From positions 192,001 through 256,000 of the forward strand of contig CAWBAT010000005.1 in assembly GCA_963786955.1 (NCBI GenBank): DNA of 64,000 nt. Reading direction: 5' to 3'. Source of the DNA: an uncultured Acidimicrobiia bacterium (GTDB lineage: Bacteria; Acidobacteriota; Terriglobia; Versatilivoradales; Versatilivoraceae). Both the position numbers and the translations under genes were made by a program. Below the pieces are notes generated by a model. The model saw only the letters and a list, made by a program, of their open reading frames with translations. It did no database searches and was not told the origin of the DNA. Shown here one piece after another: positions 9,121-26,630 of this stretch; the first letter of the stretch is position 1, and every line of letters starts with the position of its first letter.

Positions 9121-9149
9121 TTAACAGCTCCGCAAAGAGTATATATAAT
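9121..9149 (+). promoter_or_regulatory. Sigma70-like promoter of the toxin-antitoxin pair
   Basis: TTAACA (9121-9126), 17-bp spacer, TATAAT (9144-9149); GGAGG RBS at 9156-9160 before ATG 9168. Confidence 0.6.
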
Positions 9150-9167
9150 TGTTCGGGAGGCCCATCA

Positions 9168-9685: not shown

Positions 9686-9689
9686 GTAT

Positions 9690-9960
9690 CCTCATGACGT
9701 TTTTCCTCCTCCTTTTCTTTCCCCTCGTCGCTTCATTTCCGTCTTTAGACCGTTGACCTTCGACTTTGGACTTTTTTACACTCGACTTTGGACATTCATT
9801 CAGTTGGCTTTCCCCGTCTTCCCCGTGGTCCAGTTTGTTGTTTATCTTTGCGGTTTTTGCGCTCTTTTGCATCAATCCTTGCTTTAGGCTTTTCCCTTTT
9901 CATTCGACAATCGCCATTCGGCAATTGTCAGACCTTCGACTTTGGACTTTTTTCGGCCTT
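9690..9960. repeat. Modular intergenic repeat block
   Basis: Shares about 60 bp (9788-9849) nearly identically with 8834-8895; heptamer tracts and TTTGCG motifs. Confidence 0.85.
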
Positions 9961-10028: not shown

Positions 10029-11276
10029 ATGATCAATATCTCAATTTCGTGGCTGCGAAGAATTCTATCTCTAGGGGGAAGTCTTCTTGTCTTGTTTGCG
10101 CTGGTTCACGTCCTTTTGATCACGGTTTGGCGAGGGAATAACCGGGTTGAACGCTTTCTCTGCCGGACTTTCCTGATCTGTGACGACGAGCGGTTGCTCA
10201 AAGCGGCTCGCCAAAAACAGGAGGGACGAAATCCGAGCGATGTAGCTGCCGCAATCGAAGACTTTCAGGAAGCCGTTCGGCGCGATCCCGCTTCGGCCTA
10301 TCGCTGGTGCGACCTGGCTCAGGCCTGTCTCATCAGTGGCCAAGTCAGTCAGGCTCGCGACAGTATTGCCCATGCGCTAGAACTCGCACCGTACTTAAGC
10401 TCAATCGCAATGACAGCCGCAAACCTTTAATTTCAGCTACAAGATACCCGAGAAGGTCTGCACTGTTCACGACGCGTTTTAGCTCAGACCAACGAATTTG
10501 ATTCAAGCATCTTTGACACCTACGATCGGCTTGGTGTCGGTATAGACACCCTCCTGAACGAGGGAGTGCCTGCTGACGTGCGTCCGGCACAGGCTTTTTT
10601 CCACCATATTCTCGAGCGGGTTCAGGTTGCGGCTGTTCAAGCAACCTGGCAGTGGCTCTATGCTCGCGCTCTGACAGACGACAAATTGACAAGCCAATAC
10701 GTCGATTTCCTGCTCAAGACCCAGGAATATGAAGCGGCTCTCCAAGCCTGGACCGCGCAGCTTGGCAAGCGGGTCGGGGATTACCCGGAAGGGAATGGAC
10801 TATTTAATTCTGACTTTGAGGCTGAAACAACAGGAACTGCCTTGGATTGGAGAATCGGGCGGGTTGACGGAGTGGACGTGGAAGGAGACTCGACTGTGGC
10901 CAAGCAAGGCGGCTGGTCACTTCGGGTTCGTTTTGGCGGGAAAGTGAACCTGGCTTATAACCACATTTCGCAAAGAACGGTGATTAGGCCAGGGATATAC
11001 CGGTTTGAAGCGTGGGTTCGAACGGAAGAGATCACCACCGATCAAGGAATCGGTTGGCGGATTTTTGATGCGGAATCTCCGTCTCGATTGAACTTAGTTT
11101 TCGAGAATCGAGTCGGCACTGCGGCGTGGACAAAACTGGAAAAGACCTTTTTGATTCCTCCTGAAACCCGATTGCTGGAAGTGCAACTAGTTCGCCGGTC
11201 TTCACTCAAATTTGACAATAAAATCAGCGGCACAGTCTGGATTGATGCCGTGTCTCTGGTAGCGGTGAAGGATTGA
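10029..11276 (+). pseudogene. TPR plus carbohydrate-binding-domain protein associated with EPS loci, split near 10430
   Basis: N-terminal TM helix and TPR-like AVRRDPASAYRWCDLA; C-terminal LFNSDFE...WIDAVSL beta-sandwich; the two ORFs are joined by a frameshift. Confidence 0.6.
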
Positions 11277-11299
11277 TGCCTTACCGTTTTGGATCGTCG

Positions 11300-11585
11300 A
11301 GTTGTAGCCGGCCTCGCTGAGGCCGGCACTTAACCGGGGCCAGCGGCCCCGGCTACAACAATGGACTACTTCAGCATAACATTGGAGAGTCGAGCTCCTG
11401 CGATACCGGATGGAACCGTGGGTGGAACGCGAGCTCTGTGTGCGTTCAAGCGTGCGCCGGGGGACGGCGGTCCCACGCGCCCGCTCCACCTGAATGTGGT
11501 TTCTTGGAACTCCGCCCTTCAAAAATGTCCCTCCTGTATTTAAGGGGGGACTTCAGGGGAGTGGCTTCGTGAAGTTCCGCCCTCC
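11300..11585. repeat. REP-like palindrome cluster between convergent genes
   Basis: GTAG-type palindrome; GCGTGCGCCGGGGGACGGCGGTCCCACGCGC (copy at about 59805-59850); CCCTCCTGTATTTAAGGGGGGA. Confidence 0.75.
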
Positions 11586-11589
11586 AGGC

Positions 11590-12993
11590 TTATGCTGGAT
11601 TTGATTCAGCAGCCGATCGGAAGAACTCCAATCCCGCAGCAATTCCCGAGATCCAGGCTAACTGCATGGCGTTGGCAGGAATGTAAAGATTGAAATCCAC
11701 AACACTGTGGAGCAAGATCGCCGCGAGGGACCCGGTGCAGGCCAATGCCAGGCAGCAGCCATTGGCACTTTCCGGTTTAAGCGCAGCCCGTAAGACCTTA
11801 AACAAGATCACCAGCAGTAGTGTTGCCAGGATCAAAAAACCGATAACGCCCAGCTCGGCCAGAGACTGCAGGTAATCATTGTGAGCAAAGTCAACGGTGG
11901 CGTTCAGAGAAGAAGCACCATACTTCGGAAAAACGGATTCCAGACCACCAGGCCGCAGCCAAAGAGTGGATAGGCCGCGATGAGATGGATCGTATCTTTC
12001 CACATCAAAAGGCGATCATTGGCCGTAATCTCCTCGCTTGCACCCAGTTCGGCAAAACGAAGGATCAACTGGTCGGGGGGGCAGAAAAACGAATACCCAA
12101 AGAATAAGAAAGCCGACAAGCCCCACGGCTATCCACCTCTTTCTGCGTGAAATGCCTCCGCCTAATCCTGCAACACCCATAATAAACAGCGAAAAGAGTG
12201 CGGCAAGAAAATCCATCCGCGAGAGCGAGTAGATGATCCCGAGGAAGATTACGGTGGCCAGCGTCAGGGCGATACAAGCTTTGAAGACAGAAGGTCCGCG
12301 AAATCCTTCACGGGTCGCGCTTTGAAACAGAATCGCCACCGGATACATGACCGCGAAAGGCAGAGCCATTTCGAGGCAGCCGGCAAAATGATTCCGGTTG
12401 ACGAAAGTCCCATTGGCAACGGCGCCGCTTTCACCCAAAGCCGATTGTGCCAGGCCTAGTGCGGCTTCCAGACATGCGATCAATAGAATAGGGGCGGCGA
12501 GTACCCACGGCTTCTCCTGCATTTTCCGGGCGGCCTCACGGATCAGAAGAAAGATCAAGACACATCCCAATACGAGCAGCAATTTCTGGGAGGTCTCTCC
12601 CGGGTAAACGGTCAGCGGAACCAAGCGGTGTGCTGGAACAAGCTGAGCGAATCCTGCTTGTAGTTCCGCCCTTGCCGGTGACAAACTCCTCAACCAGGCA
12701 ACCGGCAGCGGAAGAAGCTGCAATGCGACATAACCGGGCAATAGCAATAAGGGGCAGGCTAGCCAGGCGTCCAGAGCGGCTCCGGAGAGGGGTGGCAGAA
12801 AGGTCAAGGCGAGGAACACGACCAGCATCCCCAATCCCAGCAGGCAGAGATTCAAGTCTTCCGACCACACTCCCCCCTGCCAAAAAACGGCGAAACCCAG
12901 GGGGAGGGTCAGAAGAACTGGCGTCCACCGAAAGCCGAAAAAAAAGAATCGAAATTCTAGGAATAATCTTAGTCGCCACTCATCGATTGTCAC
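11590..12993 (-). pseudogene. O-antigen ligase family (Wzy_C) membrane protein, frameshifted
   Basis: GTFVNRNHFAG, SLSR, AHNDYLQ..AELG and LHSVVDFNL motifs spread over three ORF pieces; one shift is at the G run near 12075. Confidence 0.8.
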
Positions 12994-12994
12994 T

Positions 12995-13405
12995 TTCTTA
13001 TTCCCCCTTACTTAAAGGGCGCCGGGGGATGTCCTGTTTTGTGAATTCTTCATTTGGCATTCGTCATTCAGCATTTATCATTTCTGACTTTAGACTCTTA
13101 ACCTTAGACCTTTGACCTATTTTCTGCTTTCTGCCTTCTGACTTTTGACCTCAGACCTCTGACTTTCGACGTTTAAGTTTGACCTTAGATCTTGGACAAA
13201 ATTTTTGCGTCCTTTGCGCTCTTTTGCGGCAATACTTGCTTTGACTTTTTCTTTAGGTTTTAGACTTTGGACTTTCGACCTTCGACCTTGGACCCTCGCT
13301 AATCTCCATTCGCCATTCGTCATTTCTGACTTTGGACTTTCAACCTTTGACTCTGAAACTCCGAACTCTTATCCCTGCCTTCTGCTTACTGCTTACTGCC
13401 TTCTG
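12995..13405. repeat. Modular intergenic repeat block
   Basis: Long heptamer tracts, TTTGCGTCCTTTGCGCTCTTTTGCGGC and a 47-bp segment identical to 26398-26444. Confidence 0.85.
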
Positions 13406-13411
13406 TCTTCT

Positions 13412-14605
13412 TCACCCCCGCAGTATCCCCATTCCATACTTGTTAGCCAGGCGGACTGCTCGAAGCGGGTAATAGAGAAACGAAAGCTTCGAAGGCAGCG
13501 AAAGGAGAGTCCAATCCGCCAGAGTTGGAGCCAGCGCAATGCTGAATGAATAACGTAACCCGTCACGCAGCCGCTCCCGGACGCGGAGATGAAACAAGGC
13601 AGCATTGAAGCCATCCGAGGGTTTGCCCAGGTCAGAGAATAACCAGGCGTAAACTCTTGTAGCCAGAGTTTCCACTACGGGTATCTTCTGCATCGCGATC
13701 AACATTTCGCTGGGAACCTCGGCTCCCAATAGATCGTTAGCCAGAAAGAGCCCCAGTAGCAGCATGCGCTCGCAACCCATGACTCTGGCCTGCTCCAGGA
13801 TCTTCTCCCATGCGAGATTTTTCTCGGCCGCGAGCAGACGAGCGATGTCGCAGATCCAACCCAGATTGAGCCAGAGATGCTTGGCGCCATGGACACAAAG
13901 AAGCAACAGCAAATCCTCCGAGGAGAGGGTCAAGACTTCCGTGCGGCAAAGCTGGACCGGATGCAATCGCCTACTCACATCGACCCACTCCAAAGGGAAA
14001 GCAAAGTCTTTGGGAGTGAGTTTGGAATGGAGTTCAACACAGATCTGGTTCTTCCCTTTGACAATTGGCCACTGACGAAGAGAAACAAGATAAGCCTCCT
14101 CTTGAGCTGGAGCCAAAGGGTACTGAGCTTGGTATCCCATAGTTGACAGCAGCGCTTTGGCACGCGGAAGATTTTCCTCTCCAAGAATGATGTCGAGGTC
14201 TCCGAACTGCCGAAAGGCCAGGTTTCCATAAGCCTTCACAGCTAAGGTAGGGCCTTTAAAGGGAATCGCCAGAATTCCGTGGGACTCCAGACGATTGAGG
14301 ATCTCCAGCAATTCCCCCGCTAGTAACAGGTTTGTTTTGGAAGTCTCGTGAAAACCCTTTTGTAGCTGGTCCAGAATGGCTTCAGGCACCGCTGCTCGAC
14401 AATTCGAATGGATGTGCCAATACAAGAGGGGCAGCAGACCATGGCGGGAGGCCGATTCGGTCAGCACGTCCCATTTGAGCCCTTTTTCGACGAGAGCATG
14501 TATTCGTTCGGTCCTCTCCGGATCGCTCCCAACCGAGGCAACCAGGACTAGTAGCTCATCTTCGGGCCGCAGAGCGATTCGCCTATTAGATCTGACGCTG
14601 ATCAC
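13412..14605 (-). CDS. Nucleotidyltransferase family protein (lasso-cluster associated)
   Basis: FKGPTLA..AYG....RQFGDLDI, VELH and LCVHGAKH...WICDI motifs. Confidence 0.85.
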   Translation of the reverse strand: MISVRSNRRIALRPEDELLVLVASVGSDPERTERIHALVEKGLKWDVLTESASRHGLLPLLYWHIHSNCRAAVPEAILDQLQKGFHETSKTNLLLAGELLEILNRLESHGILAIPFKGPTLAVKAYGNLAFRQFGDLDIILGEENLPRAKALLSTMGYQAQYPLAPAQEEAYLVSLRQWPIVKGKNQICVELHSKLTPKDFAFPLEWVDVSRRLHPVQLCRTEVLTLSSEDLLLLLCVHGAKHLWLNLGWICDIARLLAAEKNLAWEKILEQARVMGCERMLLLGLFLANDLLGAEVPSEMLIAMQKIPVVETLATRVYAWLFSDLGKPSDGFNAALFHLRVRERLRDGLRYSFSIALAPTLADWTLLSLPSKLSFLYYPLRAVRLANKYGMGILRG

Positions 14606-14614
14606 TTGTCACTC

Positions 14615-15020
14615 TTTCCTATCTTATTCCCCCTTAGTAAAGGGGGCGCCGGGGGATGTCCTGCTTTGAGGTTTTCTTCACTGGCACATGCTGTCCCCCT
14701 TTTGCACAAGGGGGGACTTCAGGGGGGATTGGCATTTATAATTTGTGACTTTTGACTTTCGACCTTGGACCTTTTGCCTCTGCTTTTGGCTTTCCCCGTG
14801 CCCCCGTGGCACGCTTCCCTGTTTATCCTCGCGCCCTTTGCGCTTTTTTGTGGCAAAAATTGTTCTTATCCTTTTCCAATCCGCGTTTATTCGCGTTCAT
14901 CCGCGGCTTATTTTTCTTTGTGTCTTTGCGTCCTTTGCGAGAGGTAGCTTTTCAATCTCAAATCGCCATTTTCCCTTTGGGACTCCGAACTCAGGACTCA
15001 AGACTCTAGACCTTTGACCG
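14615..15020. repeat. Modular intergenic repeat block
   Basis: Two GC hairpins followed by heptamers, CCCCGTGCCCCCGTGG and ATCCGCGTTTATTCGCGTTCATCCGCGGC. Confidence 0.85.
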
Positions 15021-15026
15021 GGAACA

Positions 15027-17141
15027 TTATTTAACAACGCCCACGGCTCGCACAAAGCGCTCAACGTGGCTACCAGCTCCTGCCACTTGAAACCTCTCAC
15101 CTGCTTTATCTTCTCTCATCTGAGCCGCCCAGGATTGAGCATAATCCCCGCCTCGTGCCAGTAACTCCGCGTGACTTCCGGATTCAACAATCCGCCCGTC
15201 GGCCATCACGTGGATCACATCCGCATGCATGGCAGTGGTGAATCGATGCGTGATAATCAGCACCGTGCGCCCTTGGGCCAACCTGCTGAAGCGGTCGAGC
15301 CAGTCCGCTTCCGCCCAAGGGTCCATGGCACTGGTGGGCTCATCCAAGAGGATGATAGGCGCCTGCCGGAAGAATGCCCGTGCCAGGGCGATTCGTTGCC
15401 ACTCTCCCACGCTCAGCTCTGCACCATTCACAAACCACTTCCCGAGAGGATTGTCATATCTTTGAGGTAGGCGGTGGACAATGTCTTCTGCTCCGGCAGT
15501 TCGTGCGGCCTCTTCTATCGATTTCTGTGAGTTGACACGAGACATCTCCACCTCGACCCACTCTTCGGCTCCCCTCTCCCCAACACGGGAGAGGGGCTGG
15601 AGGGTGAGGGGGAAACCCCACGCGCTGCCTGCCTTCGCCAAATCTCCCAAAGCAATGTTTTCGGCTACGGTATTGTTAAAGTGGACAGGCTCCTGGAAAA
15701 GCACCGTGAGCTGCTTGCGTAAATCCTCAATCGGTAGATCACGCAAATCAGTCCCGTCCAATTCAATCAGGCCTTCGTCAGGATCATAAAAGCGGCAGAG
15801 TAACTTAATCAGAGTACTCTTCCCTGAACCGTTGAGCCCCACGACAGCCACTTTCTTCCCAGTAGAGATATTCAAAGAAAAATCCCATAGCGCAGGTTGC
15901 TGGCTGCCGGGATAGCGGAAAGTCACATGCCGGAAGCTGATCCCTTCTTCTTGATTACCTCCCTCTCCTCTTGGGAGAGGGTGTTCGACGAGCGGGTGAG
16001 GGGAGGAAGACCACGGATCAATAATCTTGCGCGAATCGGATTCTTGCTCAGATATGATTTGGGTAGTGGCGGTTCGTATCGGAATGGGGTGAGGTCCGTC
16101 AATTACCTTTGGCTTCAGCGCCAGGAACTCAAACAAATTGCCCAGAAACAGGCTGTTTGAATACAGGTGTCCGACGTTCTGCAAAAGCGATCGCATCAAC
16201 TGCTGTCCTTGATTGAAGGCCTGGGTGAAGAGTGCCAGGTCGCCCAGTGAAACCAGGCCTTGGACGGCTTTCCACACCATCCAACCCAGGGCTGCGCCAG
16301 TAATCAACAGTCCGAAGCTGCCGGCAGCCAGCTCAGCCAGACCCTGTTCTCCAGCCATCTGCACTCGTTCCTGCCGCAGTTTCCAGCGAAGAGCCTGGTA
16401 AGCCGCCTGAAAGCGCGGACCCATTCCAAAGAGCCGCAGCTCTGCGGCAGTCTCCCGGCTGGTGAGCAGCCAGTCATAGTACCAGCTACGGCGTTCTTCG
16501 GAAGTGCTCTTCAGTCTCCATTGGTGTTGGATCAGGGTATAGCGGAGCACAACATAAAGTGCCGGAAGAGTGCTGACGAAAACCGCCGCAGGCAGCCAGG
16601 CCCCGTAAGGAACCAGCACTGCGCCCATCGCCAGCAAAGTAATTCCGTTTTGGAGCAGACTACCGAGACTTTCGAGTAATTCGACAGGCCGGTAACTGGC
16701 TTCATCGCGGGCGCGATGCAGGTGGTCATAGAACTCGGGCAGATCATAAAAAGCCAGGTCGAGTTCCACGGATTTGGTGTGGACGAGTCCCGTGACATGA
16801 TCTTTCAGGAGGTCAGCCTGGATTGTCCTAACCCAGACCGTTGCGCTGCGCAGTAACTCTGTCAGCAAGAGCACGGCACCCATCAACCCCATGGGAACAA
16901 GCACCGGGCGGAAGGTTTGCCAATCGCCATGAGAACCGAGGACAGGGACGAGGCTATTCACCAGCCACCGGGTCAGATAAACCGTAACAACAGGCAACAG
17001 CCCCTGGAACACCAGAAGGACTGCCCAAGCTATTGTCCAGCCGCGCGTCGCTCTCCAAGCCAGGCGCAATGCTCGGGGAAGATTGGGCAGCTGGGCGGCA
17101 GCCTTTCTTAATTTGCCAATGAGGAGTGGAAGATTTTGCAA
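15027..17141 (-). CDS. ABC transporter fused permease/ATPase (putative lasso peptide exporter)
   Basis: TM domain, Walker A GLNGSGKS, signature LSVGEWQRIALARA, Walker B IILLDEPT; two in-frame palindrome-derived insertions. Confidence 0.9.
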   Translation of the reverse strand: MQNLPLLIGKLRKAAAQLPNLPRALRLAWRATRGWTIAWAVLLVFQGLLPVVTVYLTRWLVNSLVPVLGSHGDWQTFRPVLVPMGLMGAVLLLTELLRSATVWVRTIQADLLKDHVTGLVHTKSVELDLAFYDLPEFYDHLHRARDEASYRPVELLESLGSLLQNGITLLAMGAVLVPYGAWLPAAVFVSTLPALYVVLRYTLIQHQWRLKSTSEERRSWYYDWLLTSRETAAELRLFGMGPRFQAAYQALRWKLRQERVQMAGEQGLAELAAGSFGLLITGAALGWMVWKAVQGLVSLGDLALFTQAFNQGQQLMRSLLQNVGHLYSNSLFLGNLFEFLALKPKVIDGPHPIPIRTATTQIISEQESDSRKIIDPWSSSPHPLVEHPLPRGEGGNQEEGISFRHVTFRYPGSQQPALWDFSLNISTGKKVAVVGLNGSGKSTLIKLLCRFYDPDEGLIELDGTDLRDLPIEDLRKQLTVLFQEPVHFNNTVAENIALGDLAKAGSAWGFPLTLQPLSRVGERGAEEWVEVEMSRVNSQKSIEEAARTAGAEDIVHRLPQRYDNPLGKWFVNGAELSVGEWQRIALARAFFRQAPIILLDEPTSAMDPWAEADWLDRFSRLAQGRTVLIITHRFTTAMHADVIHVMADGRIVESGSHAELLARGGDYAQSWAAQMREDKAGERFQVAGAGSHVERFVRAVGVVK

Positions 17142-17205
17142 GGCAAGATTAACTTAATAGAATGCTCAGTGAAAAGGAACGAAGGACCATCGTGCATCGC
17201 CCCTC

Positions 17206-18198
17206 TCACAACCTGCAGTGAAGCGCCTTCTTGAATTTGACTTCAGAAGAAAGGTTTTCGAGGATGGCTTCTTTTACAGCGGGCAAAAGCGAAAGATCGT
17301 GTGGATAACTCAATTGATAAAAGATGGGTAAATTCACAACGCGGCTTAAACAGCTGAACTCAGTCGAAAGCATGTCCCGGTCACCAATATCCAGCTTATA
17401 AGCGTATCGCACTAGCTCCAGAAAGCTTTCTCTCGGTGAAATCGGAATGATACTGATAGGCCCATTATCTTCTGAAGGTTTAGAGGTGTTGAGGAAATAA
17501 ATCCTGCGTAAAATGACTGGATCGTCTTGAAAAAGAAGTGAATGATCTATTAAGTCAATTCTCTTCTTGCGCGTATAGTGGGCAACATCACAATATTCTG
17601 GTTCTCTATTAAAGAGGGAATCGACAATTTCCTTCCAAAGCCGCAGTCCTGGATATCCCGGAAATGCAAGAAGCTCTCCTTTGCTTTCTTCGAGCACCAG
17701 GCAGTCATCGGTAATAAAAGGGAATCCATCTTTCGCAAAACTTGCCGCCAAAGTAGATTTTCCCGCTCCTGTTTTACCGATGAATGCGATAGCACCCGTT
17801 TCACTCACTACTGAGCTGGCATGCAGCACAAGTTTTCCTCTTTTGCTGAGCGCAAGAGGGAATACTTGATCTAGAAACAAGTGTCTTATCGTCTCCAACG
17901 GGACTTCAGGGACGGGTGTACATTGAACATTCTCTCCGGTTCCGGAAATGTAAAAATCGGCTAGATCAGGGAAGCGGAGGAGGTAACGGTCCCCTAGTTT
18001 GCCAAAGTAAAGCCAAACCTCCTCTTCCGTTGGCCCCCATTGGTGAAACCATGGAACGAGGATCGAATTCTGCTCTCTTGGAGACAAAAGTTCAAAATTA
18101 AACTCCGGTTTGGTTTTGTCGGTGAGAAGCAATTCAGGCAACTGGATACTGCTCTCGATAACTGTTCCGTAAATTTTATGAAGCATCGACTCCTGCAA
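17206..18198 (-). CDS. HPr kinase-like protein (lasso peptide kinase family)
   Basis: LHASSV, Walker A GKTGAGKST and ITDD motifs; located within the lasso cluster. Confidence 0.8.
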   Translation of the reverse strand: MQESMLHKIYGTVIESSIQLPELLLTDKTKPEFNFELLSPREQNSILVPWFHQWGPTEEEVWLYFGKLGDRYLLRFPDLADFYISGTGENVQCTPVPEVPLETIRHLFLDQVFPLALSKRGKLVLHASSVVSETGAIAFIGKTGAGKSTLAASFAKDGFPFITDDCLVLEESKGELLAFPGYPGLRLWKEIVDSLFNREPEYCDVAHYTRKKRIDLIDHSLLFQDDPVILRRIYFLNTSKPSEDNGPISIIPISPRESFLELVRYAYKLDIGDRDMLSTEFSCLSRVVNLPIFYQLSYPHDLSLLPAVKEAILENLSSEVKFKKALHCRL

Positions 18199-18346
18199 GT
18201 GTCATTCGATGTAGTGGAAATAAATGGGACTTGGGCCAATACAAAAAGAAGGGTAAAGAGCTTGCATGCAAGGTATTTCAGTGGTTTTGACAAAAAGTCA
18301 AATCACGCCCCATCGATCCCCCCGATAGGACCAAGAATGGAGTCGA

Positions 18347-19511
18347 CTATATTGTGTAACGCGTAACTACCTCCGCCACAAACGTGGCAGCTTCACTTGG
18401 TGAGCGAAAGAGCTTGGGATGATGCTCGTATGCCGCATTCTCTATTTCCGCAAGGCATCTTTTGCCATCACACAGGCTCAAGACTGTAAGCCGAGCTTCT
18501 CCCCTTGATGTAAGCTTTGGCTTGAAATCGGGCTGGGTTCTCTGGAGATCTCTCTTGCCGAGCAACATTCCTTTCCAGGTAGAGTGAGAAAACCAATCTT
18601 TTCTGAAGCCTCGCTCTTTAGTTGATTCCGATGGTTTTTCAAATACCTCTAGTTCCCATGCAACGACCGAGGCCCCAGGTAGAAAATGAATCTTGATCTC
18701 AATCAAATTCCCTTCCGTAACTTTGATGGCCCGTTCAATTGGAAAGAAAAGATGTTTTCTCTGAATGGTATCAGGTCGAAGTGGTGAATTTGTGACCGCA
18801 AAGCTTTCTGACAACTGGGCTGAGAACCAGCCTGCAATTCCGTGAAGTCTACCCGTCCTTCTGGCTGTAGCAGAAGCTTGTAGGCCGAATGGTTTGGCTG
18901 ACACTGTTGTGAGATCCAGAGAAGCCCCCATAACCGGCTCGCTTAGCAATTGTCCGGGTTGAAACGTAAAGCGGTAAGCGCAGTTGACAGCTACTGAACG
19001 TCCAGGTGAGAAATTTAAACCGGTCGACGAGTCGTTCCAGAAGTCGATCTGAGCAAAACTTTCGTCAGCATTCGACAGGCGCAAGGAACAAATCAACCCG
19101 CGCTGGAATCAGTCTTCCCCCAGTTTTCAAAAAGCGGTCGCGAGCGTCACTGAGAGAATCCAATAGGCCAAATTCAGGACCGAATCCAATCTGGTCAGCA
19201 ATGACGACATCAACCTTTTCTGGAAGGTCCACCCGCATAGAAAGGTCCTTGATGAAGACCACTCTATCCTGATACCCGTTGATCTCGAAAAGTTGGCGGG
19301 CCAGTTCAATGATTGCCCCTTCCTCAATCGAATAAATTCGTCGAGCTCCCGCCTGGCAGGCCAAAAGGCCGAGAATGCCTGTTCCCGCTCCAAGATCGAG
19401 AACAATATCTCCGGGTTTGACAACCTGAGCGATTGCTTGGCGAAAGGCCGAGACACGTACCTCATCTGCCAAGTAGTGGCGGTGCTCATGGAGAATCGCT
19501 GAGAAATCCAT
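18347..19511 (-). CDS. PRMT-fold SAM-dependent methyltransferase with a C-terminal PqqD/RRE-like region, frameshifted at about 19065
   Basis: VLDLGAGTGIL, LPEKVDVVIADQIG, GRLIP and GRLHGIAGWF; tail LSLCDGKRCLAEI; the two ORFs join at GAA-TGC-TGA / GCT-GAC. Confidence 0.75.
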
Positions 19512-19546
19512 TTCTTCTAAAACAGTCCCCCCTCTTCACCCACCAC

Positions 19547-19717
19547 TCATACCATGCCCATCCCGGATAGGCCGTCGGGAACTGAGCCATTTTGCCCCCG
19601 AGTCAGCTTGGAAACGCTTCCGTAATCCAGCAATCTGGGGCTAGCATACACTTTCTTTCCCTTATTTTTTTCTTCACGTTCTTGCATCGTTGGATGGATA
19701 TCCGGTAACTGGTGCAT
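19547..19717 (-). CDS. Lasso peptide precursor, 56 aa: MHQLPDIHPTMQEREEKNKGKKVYASPRLLDYGSVSKLTR-GQNGSVPDGLSGMGMV
   Basis: Hand-translated; AGGAG RBS at 19726-19730; leader motif YxxPxLxxxGxxxxxT with Thr at -2; core begins with Gly and has Asp at position 8. Confidence 0.92.
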   Translation of the reverse strand: MHQLPDIHPTMQEREEKNKGKKVYASPRLLDYGSVSKLTRGQNGSVPDGLSGMGMV

Positions 19718-19743
19718 AATGATTTCTCCTTCAGAATTTGGTC

Positions 19744-21696
19744 TCAGACTGCATGAAGAGCGACAGCCGCCTTAAGCGTCTCACCCTGACGCGGCAAATC
19801 TTGCCTGTTCAAAAAAATGGTGTTGAACCAAAGTTCGATGCCAAAAATCATCCATAGTGGCCAAATGTGTCTAACATCATCCCCCTTGTTGTAGAATTGT
19901 GTCATTTCCTGATACATATGCCGCACACTGTTTTCGGCCACCCATCCCTGAGATACTAGGCTTAGCGAATCCCAGAGCTGCTCGGCGCCGAGAGTCTGGA
20001 ACGTCTCGACAAAAAGATGGGTGAAATCCGCTTTTGTGAGTCGCTGGCGTACTGTTTCAGGCAAATAACCTTGGCATGCCTGGCGAAGAACGAATTTGTT
20101 TTGGTTACATTGGAAGCGCTGGTCTTCTGGCAGTGCCAGTGCAAATTCAACAACCCGCCGATCATGAAGTGGGTGCCGCCCTTCTAATCCATGCCACGAT
20201 GCTTCGCGTTCTTCCATCTCGCTGGCGTGGACCACAAAACCATTAGTCGCTGCCAGATAGATTTCCCAGGGGGCAAATCCTAACGGTGATGGGCGCATCG
20301 CCTTTGTTTCAATTCGCTCAGCAAGTCGTGTTCGACCAGCAAAGCCTCTCTCGATCCAGCCGGGAGTAGGCCGTCTGTTCTCCTTTCCAAGCATTCGCCT
20401 AACCCTCGAGCGCGCACTCTGGGGAAGCAGTGGCCAGAGGCCGTAATGTAATAGTCGAGACAAGGTAACAGCAGCTCCTTCAGTTCGGAACACAAATCCG
20501 AGCTCTCGAACTAATTCTGGAACTTTGAGCCGCTGCAAAAGGTCGGCATAGCGGTACCGGCTGCCCCCCAACCACTCATCACCACCCACTCCACTCAGCA
20601 CGACGCGGATCCCTCTGTCCCTAACCAGTTGGTTCACCGGGTTCGCAGTGCCGCCATTAGGATAACCGGGAAAATCTTGGTATCGCTGTGTTCGCTCGGA
20701 ATATAAGCTGAGTTCGCCGACGTGATGGCGAGTCGAGTGCCACCTGAGATGCCATATCTTGATAACGTCATTTATATAGGCGCTCTCATCGCAGGGATAA
20801 CCGGGATAAATTGTAGAAAAAGCCTCTATCTCGGAGATACAAGAACTTCCTTCCTCTGCAAGGGAAGCGGCCACACCTGCAACTGACGACGAATCCAGCC
20901 CTCCACTCAGCGACACTCCCACTGGCGTGGTGCTCCGCAGACGACAGCGCACAGCCTCTCTGAAAATCTCCAGAAAGTGTTCAGCATAGTCTTCGTCCGA
21001 CTCGTAGCGAATCTCTGGGCATGGATCGATGGACCAGTAGCGTTGTTTCCGGAATGAACTGGGACTGAGTCGCAAGTAGTGGGCTGGTGGCAGCCGGAAG
21101 ACATTTTGAAAGAGCGTCTCCTCTTGATGAGTGATAGCACTCGCCAAATATTCGGCAATCATACCCTCATTCGGTTTACGTCGAACTAAGGGGTCGATAA
21201 AAAGCGGAGGCAACTCGGAGGAAAATAGAAATGCCCGGCCCGTGTTCACATAGTAGAACGGCTTTAATCCTAGAAAGTCTCGAGCGCAGAAAAACACCTG
21301 TTGCCGCTTGTCCCAAATTGCAAAAGCAAAGTCACCAATGATTCGCTTCGGGCACTCTTCTCCCCAGCAATCGTAGGCCTTCAGGACTAGTTCAGCATCT
21401 GTATCATCTCGAAGCCTGCCGCCTTTGGCTTCAATGGCAGCTTTCAACTCGTCTCGATTATCGACACGCCCGTCAAGCGTAAGACAGAGATTGCCGGTTT
21501 CATCAAGCAGGGGCTGTTTCTCGTGAAGGGCCTCAGGCGTCGTGCAAAGCATTTGATGACCAAGCCCGACCGGACCGTCAATCCAGTACCCCACCCCGTC
21601 AGGCCCGCGGTGTGAAATCGCGTCGGTCATCCGCTGCAGTAACCTGCGATCAACGGGAGCCCCATCCAAATTATAGATGCCAGCAATGCCGCTCAT
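19744..21696 (-). CDS. Lasso peptide cyclase (asparagine synthetase-like C protein)
   Basis: AsnB fold with SLSGGLDSS and SGVGGDEW; N-terminus MSGI lacks the catalytic Cys; flanked by B1, B2 and precursor genes. Confidence 0.88.
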   Translation of the reverse strand: MSGIAGIYNLDGAPVDRRLLQRMTDAISHRGPDGVGYWIDGPVGLGHQMLCTTPEALHEKQPLLDETGNLCLTLDGRVDNRDELKAAIEAKGGRLRDDTDAELVLKAYDCWGEECPKRIIGDFAFAIWDKRQQVFFCARDFLGLKPFYYVNTGRAFLFSSELPPLFIDPLVRRKPNEGMIAEYLASAITHQEETLFQNVFRLPPAHYLRLSPSSFRKQRYWSIDPCPEIRYESDEDYAEHFLEIFREAVRCRLRSTTPVGVSLSGGLDSSSVAGVAASLAEEGSSCISEIEAFSTIYPGYPCDESAYINDVIKIWHLRWHSTRHHVGELSLYSERTQRYQDFPGYPNGGTANPVNQLVRDRGIRVVLSGVGGDEWLGGSRYRYADLLQRLKVPELVRELGFVFRTEGAAVTLSRLLHYGLWPLLPQSARSRVRRMLGKENRRPTPGWIERGFAGRTRLAERIETKAMRPSPLGFAPWEIYLAATNGFVVHASEMEEREASWHGLEGRHPLHDRRVVEFALALPEDQRFQCNQNKFVLRQACQGYLPETVRQRLTKADFTHLFVETFQTLGAEQLWDSLSLVSQGWVAENSVRHMYQEMTQFYNKGDDVRHIWPLWMIFGIELWFNTIFLNRQDLPRQGETLKAAVALHAV

Positions 21697-22286
21697 ATCC
21701 GGTTCACTTCCTGCAAGAGGGTTGGATCAAAAGGCGAGAAGCGCTCGTGAATGTCGCTGCCCTCATTGAGAGGTTGTCCGAAGCACTCCACCCAGGCGTG
21801 GGCTTCAAGTAAAGCTGCTTCTTTACGCACACCGATTCGCAAGGTGCTCTCCATCCCATTCCGCCGCAAAAACCACCAGGTAACAAGCGACTGCTTGAGG
21901 CAGTTGGCCCGAAAGGGGCCGTGGTTAGCCGCGAGCCTCACCACTCTGGCAACGAGGGCTGCCTTGGCTTCGAGATCGGAGGGGCGAGAGCCTTTAGAGT
22001 CCACGGGAGTCAGTGGTTCGCTAGGGACACACCCCGGCACGCTCCCGCTTGCCACCCCTCTCAAGAGGGGACTTCTAGCCATGTCACCACCCCCTAGTCC
22101 TTCGAACAGTTCCTCCCCCTGTCTGTGTTCGAATGAAGGAGAAGCCCTTTGGGCTAGAAAAGAATAGATCCGCCGGAAGCCAAGGATGCGCATGGCCAAG
22201 GCCGCGAGTGGGAGCAGCAGCAAGGCCTGGAAAAAGATTTGCTTTTCTAAACGGCTCAGTTGAATAAGCTTGAAGAGTTTATTCAT
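21693..22286 (-). CDS. Lasso peptide B2 leader peptidase (transglutaminase-like)
   Basis: NCLKQSL (Cys), LRIGV and AHAWVE (His) motifs; carries an in-frame palindrome-derived insert. Confidence 0.9.
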   Translation of the reverse strand: MNKLFKLIQLSRLEKQIFFQALLLLPLAALAMRILGFRRIYSFLAQRASPSFEHRQGEELFEGLGGGDMARSPLLRGVASGSVPGCVPSEPLTPVDSKGSRPSDLEAKAALVARVVRLAANHGPFRANCLKQSLVTWWFLRRNGMESTLRIGVRKEAALLEAHAWVECFGQPLNEGSDIHERFSPFDPTLLQEVNRI

Positions 22287-22563
22287 CCTTAATCTCGACC
22301 AATTCCTGGTCCACTAGTTTTTGAAGTAAATCTTCCAGGTCTTTTCGAAGAATCTCGGGCTCCACCTCATATTCTGACAACAAGGTGTCATACGCTTCTT
22401 GCAGCGAGGGAGCTGTCGTCAAGACAGTCCACATGCGAGTACCCATTTCATCCAGTCCAAAATAGCGTTCGCTTTTAAGGCTGAGTATCACCGATTCACT
22501 ACCAAGAACATTGATGAGAGTATCCGATGGGATGGAAACGCGTGTTGTATTCGTTATGGTCAT
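22279..22563 (-). CDS. Lasso peptide B1 / PqqD-family RiPP recognition element
   Basis: 94 aa, ESVILSL..ERYFGLDEMGTRMW...EYEV..E.LRKDL..LL..L; AGGAG RBS. Confidence 0.9.
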   Translation of the reverse strand: MTITNTTRVSIPSDTLINVLGSESVILSLKSERYFGLDEMGTRMWTVLTTAPSLQEAYDTLLSEYEVEPEILRKDLEDLLQKLVDQELVEIKDE

Positions 22564-22599
22564 AATCTTCTCCTGAAAGGACTCACTGCATAACTCGCG

Positions 22600-22852
22600 G
22601 AGGACATAGAAAATGGGCGGAGTGCACGCGGATAAACACGGGAACGATTAACCGCCAAGAACGCCAAGTACGCAGAGAAAAATGAGCCGCAAATGGAAGA
22701 TGGCGATTGGCGATTGAAAAGCTAACTCTCGCAAAGAACGCAGAGTGCGCAAAGAGAAATAAAAGAGTAAGTGTCGTCAATTAGACCTTGGGCCTTGTAC
22801 TACGGACTTTTGACCTCCTAACTTGCAATTGCTTTTTGCGTTTTTTGCGCCC
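22600..22852. repeat. Modular repeat block whose last module is interrupted by the DUF1670-like cassette
   Basis: CGCAAAGAACGCAGAG-type motifs, then TTTTTGCGTTTTTTGCGCCC, which resumes as TTTTTGCGGCGATA at about 24562. Confidence 0.75.
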
Positions 22853-22961
22853 TTATAGTTGTGCAATATTGCTTATTCTCTTGCCCCTGGCAGGGAAGGA
22901 GCCCGAAGGGCGACTGGAATGCCAGGGGCAAGAGAACTCATTTCGACAGCAGGAGCCCCTC

Positions 22962-23786
22962 TTGATCAACAACACCAGTTTGCAACGTTGGGACCGCATC
23001 AGTGCTAAATCCATTGACACTCAATTTAAGACCGCCATGCAGCGGGGGCTGAATTGTTCCCCTTTCGAAGCCCAGATCATGGTCGAAAAAGTCCATGAAC
23101 TTTATGGACCCTTGTTCGACAACTCAACCACTGTGCAGCCCGGACAGATTCAACTCATGGTAGTGGATGCCTCTGTGCCTCCCGGTGTTCCGCTGTCCCA
23201 AGCTGCTCAGAAGCTGGCCACCCTCACCCTGCTGGATAAAGAGGAAGACAACCAGATCCAGCAGCGGCAAACCATCCCGGCCCTGCGGCAACATCGTCTG
23301 ATGCGAGTTGCCGAAGAAGCCTTCCAGCAAGGGGGTCTGCTGACTTTGGAGGATCTGGCCCTGTTGTTTAATTGCGGCCTGCGCACTTTGGTTGGCGACT
23401 TGGCCGCATTGCGCCAGCAGAATCTGGTGCCGCCTCTTCGTTCCACCGTCAAAGACATCGGTCGAGCTGTAACCCATCGCCGCCTGATTGTCTCACTGTG
23501 GCTGGAAGGCAAAGAGTATTCCGACATCGCCTTGCATTCTCATCACAGCGTTTCTTCAGTGGCCAACTACGTGGAAAAATTCAAACGCTGTGCCGCCTTG
23601 CTCCAACATGGCTTTGATCTGACGACCACCGCTTTCCTGATTCGCTTGTCCGCCCCTTTGGTGGAGCAATTCCGCCAGTTGCATCAGACGGCCAAACCGG
23701 CGGTCCACCGGCAGCAGGAACTCTTGGGCTTCTTAAAAAAAAGCTCAGCCGATCTGCCGAGCCGCCCAACCCGGAGGTCCCAGTGA
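22962..23786 (+). CDS. DUF1670-like HTH protein 1
   Basis: RVAEEAFQQGGLLTLEDLA..F...RT...D and P.RSTVKDIGRAVTH; likely TTG start at 22962 after AGGAG (22951-22955). Confidence 0.7.
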   Translation: MINNTSLQRWDRISAKSIDTQFKTAMQRGLNCSPFEAQIMVEKVHELYGPLFDNSTTVQPGQIQLMVVDASVPPGVPLSQAAQKLATLTLLDKEEDNQIQQRQTIPALRQHRLMRVAEEAFQQGGLLTLEDLALLFNCGLRTLVGDLAALRQQNLVPPLRSTVKDIGRAVTHRRLIVSLWLEGKEYSDIALHSHHSVSSVANYVEKFKRCAALLQHGFDLTTTAFLIRLSAPLVEQFRQLHQTAKPAVHRQQELLGFLKKSSADLPSRPTRRSQ

Positions 23787-24532
23787 ATCCTCCGGCCCAA
23801 TCCATAAAACATTACCGCTCTGCTCAAAACCGCTTTCTCCGCCCTTCCATCCAGCGGTTTTTGCAAAGCCAGTGCCCCAAGCTTTTTGGCCCCTTGCTTG
23901 CCGAACGTTTGGCGGAAAAAATTGTCGAGCTAGTTGAAAAACAGTTGCCCCATAAAGATCATCTGCAGCCGGGCCAGATGGTCTGGAATGCGGTCTCTCA
24001 ACAATCCAGACCTAACAGCCCGAACCTGCAATTGCTCCCAGTCCTGTTGACGTTGGTCGATCCTTCCGATGTCGAGCAACTGGCAAAGGGCTCCTCGATG
24101 ACAACCATCGCTAAAAAGGCCATCGCCCGTATTTGCTGCGAGGCCCATCAACAAGGCGCCTTGTTGACCATGCGGGATATCGGCCTTTTTTGCTGGCGGC
24201 AAAACTCGAGGCTTTCCTCCTTGCGGGCTGCCTGGGAAAAAGAACATGACACCACTCTCCCACACAGCGGCAGTTTGCAGGACTTTGGCTCTTGTATCTC
24301 TCACAAAAAAACCATCGTCAAAAAGGCCATCCTTGACAAAAAAGACCCGAAACGGATCGCTCTCGAAACCAAACATTCACAAAAGGCCGTGGACCGCTAT
24401 CTGAAGGATTTCCATCGGGTCAAAACCTGTTTCCAACACAATCAAAGCCTCGAGTTCATCGCTCAAGTCACTGCCTTGTCACCTTTCCTGGTCAAACAAT
24501 ACGTGGAGATAATCAATGCCTCTAATCTCTAA
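23783..24532 (+). CDS. DUF1670-like HTH protein 2
   Basis: RICCEAHQQGALLTMRDI, PHSGSLQDFGSCISHK and HSQKAVDRYLKDF; GTGA overlap with the upstream paralog. Confidence 0.7.
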   Translation: MNPPAQSIKHYRSAQNRFLRPSIQRFLQSQCPKLFGPLLAERLAEKIVELVEKQLPHKDHLQPGQMVWNAVSQQSRPNSPNLQLLPVLLTLVDPSDVEQLAKGSSMTTIAKKAIARICCEAHQQGALLTMRDIGLFCWRQNSRLSSLRAAWEKEHDTTLPHSGSLQDFGSCISHKKTIVKKAILDKKDPKRIALETKHSQKAVDRYLKDFHRVKTCFQHNQSLEFIAQVTALSPFLVKQYVEIINASNL

Positions 24533-24655
24533 AAAACAACTTGATACGCAATATTGCCTAATTTTTGCGGCGATAGCTGCTTTAGGCTTTTGACTTTCGA
24601 CCTTAGACCTTAAACCTGCCTTCTGTCTTTTGACTCCGGACTCTTGGAACTCTGA

Positions 24656-26152
24656 TCAATTCACTCTGGTAAAGGCACCGGCTGCTTTGGCGCGGACCGC
24701 CTCGCGGTTATCCCGCTCTGCCGTCTCCTCTGCTACATCACGCACAACCTCGCGAACGGATCCCTGCAATCGCTCGCGCAGGCCGCGGTGCAGCACCTCG
24801 ACAAAAGGGGCTACGATCATTGCATTATTGCCAGACTCAAACTTCCGGGTGAGATTGATATAACCAAAGCCATCCAGAGGAATCCTCAAGTGCCAGCAAT
24901 TATCCACCGTTTCCGTCCCTAGTTGTGCTTCGAAAACCTGTTCCAGCAAATGGCAGCGCACTTCGATGAAACCAAGGCTCTGGCAGGTTTCTCGAATGGC
25001 ACTCCAGAAATCTTCAACCGTTTTGGCTGCGGCCAGCGTCTCTTCAAAGCGCCGCAGGAGCAAATGCCCGCTCAGCATGCGCCGGAAAGCCCCTGCCAGT
25101 ACCAGGCGGCGGGCGACGCCGAACTCAACATAACCCAGGTGTTGCACCCCAACCCAGGTAACCGCGCAAAACAGCAGAATGATGAGCCCCTGGCCCCGGT
25201 TTTGCAGAAAACCTTGGAGTAACGAGAAGGCGGCTCCGAGCGCGCATAGCCCGTAGAGAACCAAAGCGACACGGCGGGGAGTGAATCCGCGATCAAGCAG
25301 ACGATGATGGATGTGTCCCCGGTCTGCCTTGAAAAGCGGCTCGTGGTGCAGATAGCGGCGCACCACCGAAAGGCAGACATCCAGAAGCGGAATGGCGAGG
25401 GTCATGAGGGGTGCGGTCATGCCCAGAAAGGTGGCGGACTTCTGGCTCCAGATCACCCCAAAACAGCCCAGCAGAAAACCAATCAACAGACTTCCGGAAT
25501 CCCCCAGGAAAATGGAAGCGGGATTGAAATTGTAACGCAGAAAACCCAGCAACGCACCGGCCAGAGGAATTGTGGCCAGAGCCAGCGGCACATTTTTCTG
25601 CAGTAAGGCGGCAACAAACGTCGTGACGGTGGCAAAGAGTCCCAGGCCCGAAGCTAGCCCGTCCACCCCATCAATCAGATTGAAGGCGTTCATGCAAGCT
25701 ACTAGCCAGAGAAGCGTCAGCGGCAATGTCCACCACCAGCTATCGGCGCCATGTCCTGCCACTGATAAGATGCGGACGCCGGCCCAGTAAGCGAGTAATG
25801 AAGCACTCACCTGGCCAACCAACTTTTGCCAAGGTCGCAACCCGAACAGGTCATCCGCCAGACCGACGGCGAAAATCAGGGCAGCAGCGGGCAAGAGCAA
25901 CAGAGCCTGATGAATATTTTTAGCAATGAGGTTGCCTGCGTTCAATGGGGACAGTAGCAGCAGCCCATAAGCAGCCAGATAGGCCGCTACGATTGGGACA
26001 CCCCCCATTCGCGGAATGGGATTTTGCTGCAGCTTACGCTGGCCATCGGGCTGATCCACCATACCCAGGCAACGAAAAGCGTTTCGGCACAGAGGGGTGA
26101 GGATCAACGAACAGAAAAAAGAAACAATTCCGAGTATGAGAAGTGAATACAT
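24656..26152 (-). CDS. WecA/MraY-family undecaprenyl-phosphate sugar-1-phosphate transferase
   Basis: PRMGG, GLADD, NAFNLIDGVDGL, IFLGDSGS and DRGHIHHRL motifs. Confidence 0.9.
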   Translation of the reverse strand: MYSLLILGIVSFFCSLILTPLCRNAFRCLGMVDQPDGQRKLQQNPIPRMGGVPIVAAYLAAYGLLLLSPLNAGNLIAKNIHQALLLLPAAALIFAVGLADDLFGLRPWQKLVGQVSASLLAYWAGVRILSVAGHGADSWWWTLPLTLLWLVACMNAFNLIDGVDGLASGLGLFATVTTFVAALLQKNVPLALATIPLAGALLGFLRYNFNPASIFLGDSGSLLIGFLLGCFGVIWSQKSATFLGMTAPLMTLAIPLLDVCLSVVRRYLHHEPLFKADRGHIHHRLLDRGFTPRRVALVLYGLCALGAAFSLLQGFLQNRGQGLIILLFCAVTWVGVQHLGYVEFGVARRLVLAGAFRRMLSGHLLLRRFEETLAAAKTVEDFWSAIRETCQSLGFIEVRCHLLEQVFEAQLGTETVDNCWHLRIPLDGFGYINLTRKFESGNNAMIVAPFVEVLHRGLRERLQGSVREVVRDVAEETAERDNREAVRAKAAGAFTRVN

Positions 26153-26194
26153 ATTAGATCAATGGATTAATAAAATTGCCGATTGAAGAAGGGC

Positions 26195-26630
26195 AATAGT
26201 TCAGAGTCCGGAGTCAAAGGTCTAAGGTCAAATGTGCAAAATGTCGAATGTCGATTGCCAAATGTCGAATGAAACGCTGGTAGCCTCATTGAGCGTTATC
26301 GGCCTGCTGTTTTCTGCTTGCTGCCTTCTGAACTCTGACTTTTGACTTTAGACCTCAGACCTTGGATATTCATAAAGGGGGCGCCGGGGATGTCCTATTT
26401 TGTGAATTCTTCATTTGGCATTCGTCATTCAGCATTTATCATTTGTGACTTTGGACTTTCGGCCTTCGACATTGGACACTCATTCAGTTGGCTTTCCCCG
26501 TGTTCCCCGTGGTTCATACTCAATGTTTTCCCCCTTGTATTTAAGGGGGGATTACAGGGGGGTCCGCCCATAGCGTCCTTTGCGAGAATAAGTCTTTGAC
26601 CTTGGACCTTAGACTTTGGACCTTAGACTC
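26195..26630. repeat. Modular intergenic repeat block with mixed orientation
   Basis: Purine-strand heptamers at 26195-26270, then pyrimidine-strand modules and hairpins. Confidence 0.8.

Follow-up and report, generated by a model that had tools for sequence, protein, structure and literature searches.

What is a complete set of lasso peptide genes doing at the tail end of a polysaccharide locus? The question arises from a 64-kb stretch of DNA (contig CAWBAT010000005.1, positions 192,001 to 256,000; hereafter the window) of a 5.65-Mb genome, G000, in which a lasso peptide cluster (22563-13412, minus strand) stands between a wecA-like gene and a gene of the Wzy_C family. We compared the window with the genome of a sister species (G002), with the 95% complete genome of a third congeneric species (G001), and with 80 loci fetched around relatives of the lasso cyclase, one genome per species (L numbers below), onto which the window proteins were mapped by tblastn. 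The results lead us to favour, with clear reservations, the reading that the cluster belongs, as a resident module, to a UpxY/Wza/Wzc/Wzx/Wzy polysaccharide locus and is no chance neighbour. It very probably occupies a conserved modular slot of this Wzx/Wzy locus and takes part in a non-random link with polysaccharide export that extends across phyla.

The lasso cluster and the polysaccharide locus around it

Genes were called with Pfam and NCBIfam profile searches, and the lasso genes are given letters: B1, B2, C (cyclase), A (precursor), MT (methyltransferase), K (kinase), D (exporter), and N (nucleotidyltransferase). All are on the minus strand. B1 (22563-22279) encodes a leader-binding, PqqD-like recognition element (RRE) of peptides that are made on ribosomes and modified after translation (RiPPs) (PqqD E 4e-15) and is followed by the leader peptidase gene B2 (22286-21693; Transglut_core3 E 3e-22; NF033537 86 bits, cut-off 33). 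The lasso macrolactam cyclase, C (21696-19744), matches Asn_synthase and GATase and scores 528.3 bits with NF033535 (cut-off 525). The precursor, A (19717-19547), matches the lasso leader profile NF033521 (22 bits, cut-off 19) and is the sole open reading frame (ORF) with a leader motif in 11000-27000. A gene similar to those of protein arginine methyltransferases (PRMT) follows in two frames (19511-18347), with matches to PrmA and PRMT_C on its two halves. K (18198-17206) encodes an HprK-related peptide kinase with a weak Hpr_kinase_C match, a P-loop (Walker A) GKTGAGKS, and a TIGR04352 match (E 7e-11) short of the family cut-off. D (17141-15027) is an MsbA-like ATP-binding cassette (ABC) exporter (ABC_tran and ABC_membrane). 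Finally, N (14605-13412) encodes a PF14907 nucleotidyltransferase of the PsmN type (NTP_transf_5 E 1e-62) that covers positions 3-249 of the 249 of the profile and has FGDLD at residues 134-138 (D136-x-D138); PsmN itself we take to be a member of PF14907. The locus thus has a cyclase, separate B1 and B2, and a precursor with a leader motif, and is almost certainly a genuine split-B lasso cluster of the kind with a kinase and a PF14907 nucleotidyltransferase. The genes listed in an initial annotation of this DNA are confirmed, because each has its profile match at the expected place on the minus strand and there is a single precursor with the leader motif.

From B1 to D little room is left between the genes, with overlaps of 8 and 4 nt and with gaps of 26-148 nt, and B1-B2-C-A-MT-K-D are packed like a single operon. 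The initial annotation placed the cluster inside a polysaccharide operon. The packing suggests an operon from B1 to D, but a spacer of ~420 bp precedes N, and another of ~420 bp precedes the ligase gene.

The cluster belongs to a co-directional minus-strand gene array that spans 48 kb, from a UpxY-family gene to the Wzy_C gene. The former, with which the polysaccharide locus begins (59715-59176), encodes a NusG paralogue (NusG E 2.7e-18) that passes the cut-off of NF033644 narrowly (102.9 bits against 100). The UpxY-family gene that had been proposed upstream as a putative antiterminator is present, with the lasso cluster 37 kb downstream of it. The same strand encodes a Wza-type export protein (57753-58745; Poly_export and SLBB), a Wzc-type co-polymerase and tyrosine autokinase (54440-56866; Wzz, GNVR, and AAA_31; TIGR01007 126.9, cut-off 108), a Wzx-type flippase (49261-50871; Polysacc_synt E 3e-21), a candidate Wzy-like polymerase (36809-38236), a WecA-like initiating phosphoglycosyl transferase (26152-24656; Glycos_transf_4 E 3e-38; TIGR02380 below cut-off), and the Wzy_C-family O-antigen ligase or polymerase (12993-11590), whose weak Wzy_C match is on a C-terminal piece. 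Both flanks of the cluster are those initially described. The ligase gene, however, is a member of the Wzy_C family that can be read through only with two frame changes, near 12090-11960; one tblastn alignment ties it to the intact Wzy_C gene of locus L019, with a conserved motif in the third frame, and intact homologues in other loci exceed the Pfam cut-off. Further genes encode GDP-sugar enzymes, an AsnB-type amidotransferase, a carbamoyltransferase, and numerous transferases of glycosyl, acyl, and methyl groups. Together they make up a locus of the Wzx/Wzy type, with a polymerase represented through weak matches only (O-ag_pol_Wzy, E 0.0015, and Wzy_C).

Two other features of the locus deserve mention. 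A second gene of the Asn-synthetase family, paralogous in fold to the lasso cyclase, is found inside the polysaccharide part, split in two ORFs (33017-34986); its best match is the XrtA/PEP-CTERM amidotransferase model, below cut-off. An IS630-like transposase gene (60539-61618; DDE_3 and HTH) lies between the UpxY gene and the gene of a NarL/LuxR-type response regulator (61895-62611).

A shared slot with an exchanged cassette

The lasso cluster fills the wecA-to-Wzy_C slot in two sister species. In G002, a single contig has glycosyltransferase genes (GTs) and then the order WecA-1.45 kb spacer-B1-B2-C-precursor-K-MT-D-N-Wzy_C. Part of this region is well conserved between the two genomes, with identities of 91% for WecA, 92/88% for B1, 79% for B2, 72% for D, 81-83% for N, and 82-87% for the ligase. 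Since B1, B2, D, and N are conserved like wecA and the ligase, the slot is old and not a fresh landing. The remaining proteins have diverged (34% for C, 33% for K, 46/26% for MT). The similarity of the DNA stops at 21599 and returns at 17126, and the C-A-MT-K block of ~4.5 kb in between has been exchanged for one of equal size in the order C-A-K-MT, with GTKAKPDAAVTVVKHE as the core of its precursor and a cyclase whose closest counterpart (41%) is in a locus of another family. Judging from these comparisons, the genes that fit the core seem to move jointly, and those for leader handling (B1, B2), export (D), and N to remain. We had considered that the cluster has no orthologue in the genus, and rejected the idea because the slot of G002 is filled, its cyclase being merely 34% identical. 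With this query, the 24 genomes of the same family gave no close cyclase orthologue, bar the divergent one of G002. The stretch of 1.45 kb between wecA and B1 in G002 (L098; C20:22973-24419) has no ORF of more than 63 aa, no Rfam match, and no similarity to the window.

In the window, wecA and B1 are separated by an insertion of 1,710 bp (22853-24562, plus strand) associated with two Pfam DUF1670 genes (22788-23786 and 23783-24532). The order from wecA to the ligase had been described as co-directional; this is true of the lasso genes and both flanks, all on the minus strand, but not of these two genes. A copy of the insertion in another contig of G000 (C7:144829-146545) is 99.94% identical and adjoins a 70% identical one (C7:146903-148620), G002 lacks the element, and a 424-nt environmental contig of DNA run X1 shows the empty site, joining 22852 to 24563, its two sides having 0 and 2 mismatches. 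The near-identical copy, the absence from G002, and the empty site identify a recent, polymorphic mobile insertion. Without it, wecA and B1 are ~382 bp apart on the same strand. A palindromic GCAATATTGC is found ~10-15 nt inside each end of the element, in which no transposase domain was recognised. Other contig joints (such as those of 13068, 13294, or 13357 to 14750) were taken as repeat artefacts, their sides being 21-39 nt long and located inside the repeated spacers.

The spacers of the lasso cluster resemble those of the rest of the locus. Arrays of the heptamer (GACYTYN)n with at least 3 units number 37 in the whole of G000, 18 of them in the window and all of these intergenic. They are located at the GT/wecA, wecA/B1, D/N, and N/ligase junctions and upstream of wza, wzc, and wzx, and G002 has arrays at the same junctions. 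The array regions around the lasso genes are 13075-13363, 14729-14782, 22780-22819, 24574-24646, and 26319-26633. Orientation reverses between the two halves of the locus: arrays are in plus orientation at 8809-9951, 13140-13290, 14747-14774, 24592-24612, 26337-26625, and 28005-28025, and in minus orientation at 50889-50916, 57410-57725, 58851-58871, and 62996-63227. They could be binding sites or a locus-specific repeat. As a sequence feature, they place the lasso module within the spacer architecture of the polysaccharide locus, which does not imply co-regulation.

Other repeats occur in the same spacers. Hairpin-like repeats (CCCCCTT...AAGGGGGG) are present at 11519-11562, 14685-14728, and 26520-26563, and a common box of 36 nt lies immediately 5' of the start codons of the ligase (12993-13028) and of N (14619-14654). 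A repeat of 103 nt (13014-13116 and 26375-26477) is 85% identical between its copies, and the spacers preceding wecA, N, and the ligase resemble one another like copies of a single module. B1 to D are bracketed by an inverted repeat of 62 nt (85% complementary), with one arm in the D/N spacer (14924-14985), the other 5' of B1 (22684-22745), and an extra copy elsewhere in G000 (C5:161251-161312). Rfam gave zero matches on the window and on the G002 locus. Contigs of RNA run X10, 90-95% alike and thus from a relative, fall on the ligase, N, D, B1, and wecA, with none on 16901-21319. This pattern is a weak hint that fits a variable cassette; contigs from an RNA library are no proof of transcription, and gaps are no proof either.

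Polysaccharide genes beside related lasso clusters

We searched for exopolysaccharide (EPS) genes in the 80 related loci, in which the lasso genes themselves are found with varying frequency (K in 69, B1 in 67, D in 41, N in 36, B2 in 34, and MT in 18). The baseline consisted of 20,000 random 22-kb windows of a single genome, G000. The fetched loci have a mean length of 17.2 kb, so that comparing them with windows of 22 kb is conservative; 42 of the 80 have full flanks of 10 kb. A homologue of Wzc is present in 20 of the 80 loci, against 1.7% of the random windows, and at least one core EPS gene (Wzc, Wza, Wzy_C, WecA, Wzx, or Wzy) in 22, against 4.2%. This corresponds to an enrichment beside related lasso clusters of ~15-fold for Wzc and ~6-fold for core EPS genes. 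Wza (3 loci, against 1.1%), Wzy_C (6, against 1.6%), glycosyltransferases (21, against 6.3%), and EPS-like hits of any kind (34, against 11.7%) were also counted. The N-terminal co-polymerase part is included in 11 of the 20 Wzc matches. Among the 42 loci with full flanks, core genes are found in 14, and core genes or glycosyltransferases in 23.

As an unbiased control, we ran 400 random long ORFs of G000 against the 80 loci. Eight of them match at least 20 loci; half of these match all 80, and the other half have 42-47 paralogue bins. We presume these eight to be paralogues of the cyclase and of ABC proteins. Next in frequency, a paralogue of the Wzc kinase is seen in 19 loci and five GT1 enzymes in 10-17. 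Within the 263 families with at most 6 paralogue bins, the Wzc paralogue alone reaches at least 10 loci. When the EPS label is mapped onto a tree of 82 cyclases, it needs 16 changes, and branches with good support force at least 11 of these. Because of these changes, the link to EPS genes is not one inherited accident. It is seen in Acidobacteriota, Cyanobacteria, Chloroflexota, and deltaproteobacterial metagenome-assembled genomes (MAGs) with Wza.

Some of these loci interleave the two kinds of genes. In a Bryobacterales MAG (L078), NusG-epimerase-Wza-B1-B2-C-K-A-N-Wzc are all on one strand, with overlaps or gaps of 2-71 nt, except for the 227-nt interval from K to N that houses the precursor. 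A Vicinamibacterales MAG (L019) has LuxR and, further on, Wzy_C-Wza-Wzc-N-B1-B2-D-C-A-MT-K. In L012, the locus closest to the window on the cyclase tree, WecA is followed at some distance by N-D-B1-B2-C-K-porin-Wza-Wzc-Wzy_C/TPR. A 1,061-aa ORF of L012 (2314-5499) fuses a CoA_binding_3/Polysacc_synt_2 sugar dehydratase, similar to PglF or CapD, to a PF14907 domain; it may be a true fusion or an artefact of long-read assembly. Three database proteins (P0121, P0122, and P0123), from a search that we rate as weak, fuse PF14907 to PMT_2 (GT-C), to a sulfotransferase, and to GT1. A suspected synteny between the ligase-adjacent TPR/CBM gene of L013 and the window ORFs at 10029-11276 was dropped, as tblastn gave no match.

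The cluster might nevertheless be a neighbour by chance, or by virtue of a hotspot, and encode an ordinary secreted lasso peptide (an antibiotic or a signal) with its own transcription and no tie to a glycan. Several observations point this way or weigh against a resident module. EPS loci are known as hotspots where genes are exchanged, and the slot itself experienced both the exchange of its central cassette between the sister species and a mobile insertion at its junction. This insertion puts 1.7 kb of antisense DNA, with two minus-strand terminator-like hairpins, in the way of read-through from wecA. The cluster was undetected in G001, where N has no match and the cyclase matches AsnB-like proteins only. 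It has an exporter of its own, D, and the spacers 5' of B1, N, and the ligase leave room for separate promoters. A scan gave 12 promoter and 22 terminator sites, where shuffled sequences gave 9.6 and 20.2, respectively, and thus no signal above background. The comparison across loci has its own weaknesses. The baseline is from one genome, the loci are mutually related, and six Nostocales and three acidobacterial loci are clearly orthologous. In addition, 58 of the 80 loci lack a core EPS gene in the fetched flanks, and 46 lack any EPS-like hit. Finally, the methyltransferase and ligase genes are broken in this assembly, and the core of the window peptide ends in ...GMGMV, i.e., in Val without a C-terminal Ser, its only Ser being at positions 5 and 11.

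We still regard a chance or hotspot neighbour as unlikely, albeit a possibility to be taken seriously. It does not account for the excess of Wzc and of core EPS genes, for EPS families being the top non-lasso neighbours in the unbiased scan, for the repeated and independent changes of the EPS label on the cyclase tree, or for the tight interleaving of lasso and EPS genes in L078, L019, and L012. Nor does it fit the conservation of B1, B2, D, and N between the sister species, which is as strong as that of wecA and the ligase. The initial annotation had expected that, were the two systems unrelated, lasso clusters orthologous to this one would usually lie away from EPS genes. Measured against chance they do not, yet for most of the loci the fetched flanks contain no core EPS gene.

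The predicted peptide, its proposed tailoring, and its possible role

The precursor has a leader ending in ...KKVYASPRLLDYGSVSKLTR and a predicted core GQNGSVPDGLSGMGMV. The junction reads ...SKLTR/GQNGSVPD..., with Thr at -2 and with Gly1 and Asp8 in the core, from which we infer a ring of 8 residues closed between Gly1 and Asp8 and a tail of 8 residues, GLSGMGMV. The only match of this precursor in the protein database is the window's own entry, but it can be aligned with 11 precursors of related loci. Five leader residues (Y, P, L, G, and T(-2)) do not vary in this alignment, and core position 8 or 9 is acidic. Loci in the C-A-MT-K order encode cores that agree in ring size and have tails rich in Met. 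Other loci of this order yielded nine cores, of which six end in Cys-Leu; that of the window ends in Val. Met-rich precursors with a Cys-Leu end are found beside the PRMT-like enzyme in L002, L011, L014, L016, L017, and L022, and the precursor of L019 has a run of seven Met. Such tails might point to metal binding or to a C-terminal modification. The C-terminal Ser that is the acceptor of PadeK and PsmK is absent from all 12 aligned cores. Each of these has at least one Ser or Thr, at no constant position.

The methyltransferase gene is present, as initially described, although frameshifted in this assembly: two ORFs of 148 and 249 aa are in different frames and overlap at 19065-19096. PrmA and Methyltransf match the N-terminal piece and PRMT_C the C-terminal one (E 1.5e-9). 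Its homologues in other loci are single ORFs without stops in 18 of 19 cases, ~310-390 aa long, and an intact one matches PRMT6 with E 2e-26. By sequence, the enzyme is a homologue of type I, eukaryote-type protein arginine methyltransferases. The canonical double-E loop is altered (SEW...HE in PRMT6, ADQ...DA in the homologue, ADQIGFGPEF in the window), and the 12 aligned precursors have no conserved Arg. The enzyme has a C-terminal tail of ~80 residues. When this tail was searched for a PqqD-like RRE, hhalign with a B1 alignment gave a probability of 4.5%, and Pfam PqqD matched 4 of 15 tails with E 0.019 or worse; a predicted complex of the L014 methyltransferase and precursor scored 0.02. 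The family is large, with at least 150 representatives at 50% identity and end-to-end profile matches of E 2e-111 or better.

Whether the lasso peptide and the polymer are functionally tied is, in our view, an evenly balanced question. In the scheme that we propose, B1 would bind the leader (Y-x-x-P-x-L ... T at -2), B2 would cleave behind Arg-1, and C would join Gly1 to Asp8. K would then phosphorylate a Ser or Thr (Ser5 or Ser11), N would put a sugar or a nucleotide on the phosphate, as PsmN does, the PRMT-like methyltransferase would modify some atom, and D would export the product. The peptide would be produced alongside the polysaccharide and act with the polymer as a matrix or biofilm factor, or would bear the activated sugars of the locus. 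A bolder possibility, to which we give little credence, is that lasso systems with a kinase and a nucleotidyltransferase are an accessory module of polysaccharide export across phyla. A phosphopeptide loaded with sugar, by the PF14907 enzyme or by a Wzy_C-type transferase, would cap, prime, or organise the polymer. Export and leader recognition would be the constant chassis, and the swappable C-A-MT-K would give each strain a peptide 'serotype'.

A covalent attachment of the peptide to the glycan seems very unlikely. The exported phosphopeptide would have to be linked, through its phosphate or by the Wzy_C 'ligase', to an undecaprenyl-linked glycan, giving a peptide-capped or peptide-anchored surface polysaccharide. 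The Wzy_C family includes the protein O-oligosaccharyltransferases PglL and PilO, but other members are simple glycan polymerases or ligases. Genes of the family occur beside related clusters more often than in random windows and are intact there, whereas the one of the window is frameshifted. The single ORF of L012 joins a sugar dehydratase to PF14907, but comes from a long-read MAG and is possibly an assembly artefact; the fusions of PF14907 to GT-C, GT1, and a sulfotransferase are three in number and were found by the weak search mentioned above. There is also a chemical precedent, in that PsmN-type enzymes are required for the hexose on phospho-Ser (PMC6993621, in the part of that study available to us).

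The broken genes raise another issue. Two frames are needed to read the methyltransferase and three to read the ligase, and at least four more genes of the window are split likewise, including those at 26609-27878 (GT), 35112-36267 (GT), AsnB, and Gmd. The breaks of G002 are in other genes (wecA, B1, N, and C), and one short-read contig differs from the assembly by one G in the G run at 19527. On these grounds, the frame breaks are very probably assembly errors. That they are real, and the module on its way out in this lineage, is very unlikely: the methyltransferase break is outside any homopolymer, but at least five other window genes (the ligase included) are split in the same way, those of G002 are elsewhere, a one-base difference is on record, and the remaining lasso genes are all intact.

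How does the locus compare with published systems? The statements that follow refer to the parts of each paper available to us. The nearest relative in gene content is the pseudomycoidin cluster psmCAKB1B2ND of Bacillus pseudomycoides (PMC6993621), which also has B1 and B2 as separate genes, a cyclase similar to Asn synthetase, a kinase similar to HprK, a nucleotidyltransferase described as uncharacterised with D-x-D as its catalytic pair, and an ABC exporter. There, the C-terminal Ser is the residue that PsmK phosphorylates, and addition of the hexose to the phosphate requires PsmN (PMC6993621, PMC9266682); the chemistry that the initial annotation gave for such clusters was correct. The window differs in gene order, in its Gram-negative-type host, in a core that ends in Val, in the extra PRMT-like methyltransferase, and in the Wza/Wzc/Wzx/Wzy setting; N is likened to PsmN by family and motif. 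The co-location as such is already published for Bacilli: clusters for paeninodin-like lasso peptides and linear LPP are embedded in capsular polysaccharide loci and thus, as here, place kinase and NTP-transferase RiPP genes inside such loci (PMC13381572, Nat Commun 2026). That study describes up-regulation synchronous with an EPS gene, states that the role is unknown, and mentions biofilm as a speculation. Unlike these Bacillota clusters, those reported here belong to other phyla and come with Wza, figures of enrichment, a conserved slot, and an exchanged cassette. Our search of the literature found nothing on a link of lasso clusters with Wza/Wzc-type loci or outside Firmicutes, although the supplement of PMC13381572 may list wider taxa.

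Other systems share single traits with the window. In davasins, an enzyme encoded nearby also puts a sugar onto the lasso peptide, namely the cluster glycosyltransferase IgtG, which glycosylates a Ser (PMC11912497). This is direct O-glycosylation and not a route by kinase and nucleotidyltransferase, and the part of that paper available to us reports no link to export-type polysaccharides. In rumen Butyrivibrio, lasso clusters come with an HPr kinase, a nucleotidyltransferase, GT2, and EpsH, and glycosyltransferases are reported with 36% of the clusters (PMC7533575). Glycosyltransferases thus accompany kinase-type lasso clusters there too, but these are from Firmicutes and, as far as the available part of the paper goes, have no Wza/Wzc context and no functional reading. 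Methyltransferases dependent on S-adenosylmethionine are also known from lasso clusters, as the C-terminal O-methyltransferase StspM of the lassomycin type and the PIMT-type enzymes of cellulonodin and lihuanodin (PMC9266682). The enzyme of the window, a homologue of type I PRMT, is neither similar to mitomycin O-methyltransferases nor to PIMT. Our literature search retrieved nothing on a PRMT-like enzyme in lasso clusters, on Met-rich lasso cores, including those without the C-terminal Ser, on a cassette swap, or on a Gram-negative export context.

The role of lasso peptides for their producers is largely unknown, and is stated outright to be so for the paeninodin type (PMC13381572, in the part available). 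The locus described here provides a quantified link to polysaccharide export outside Firmicutes. It also offers a natural experiment, in which two sister species have the slot, B1, B2, D, and N in common and differ in core, cyclase, kinase, and methyltransferase. Moreover, it points to a large unstudied subfamily that combines a PRMT-like enzyme with Met-rich cores, often with a Cys-Leu end, and numbers at least 150 clusters when full-length matches are counted at 50% identity. The question of what a lasso peptide and a polymer may do together thus becomes testable in a defined system.

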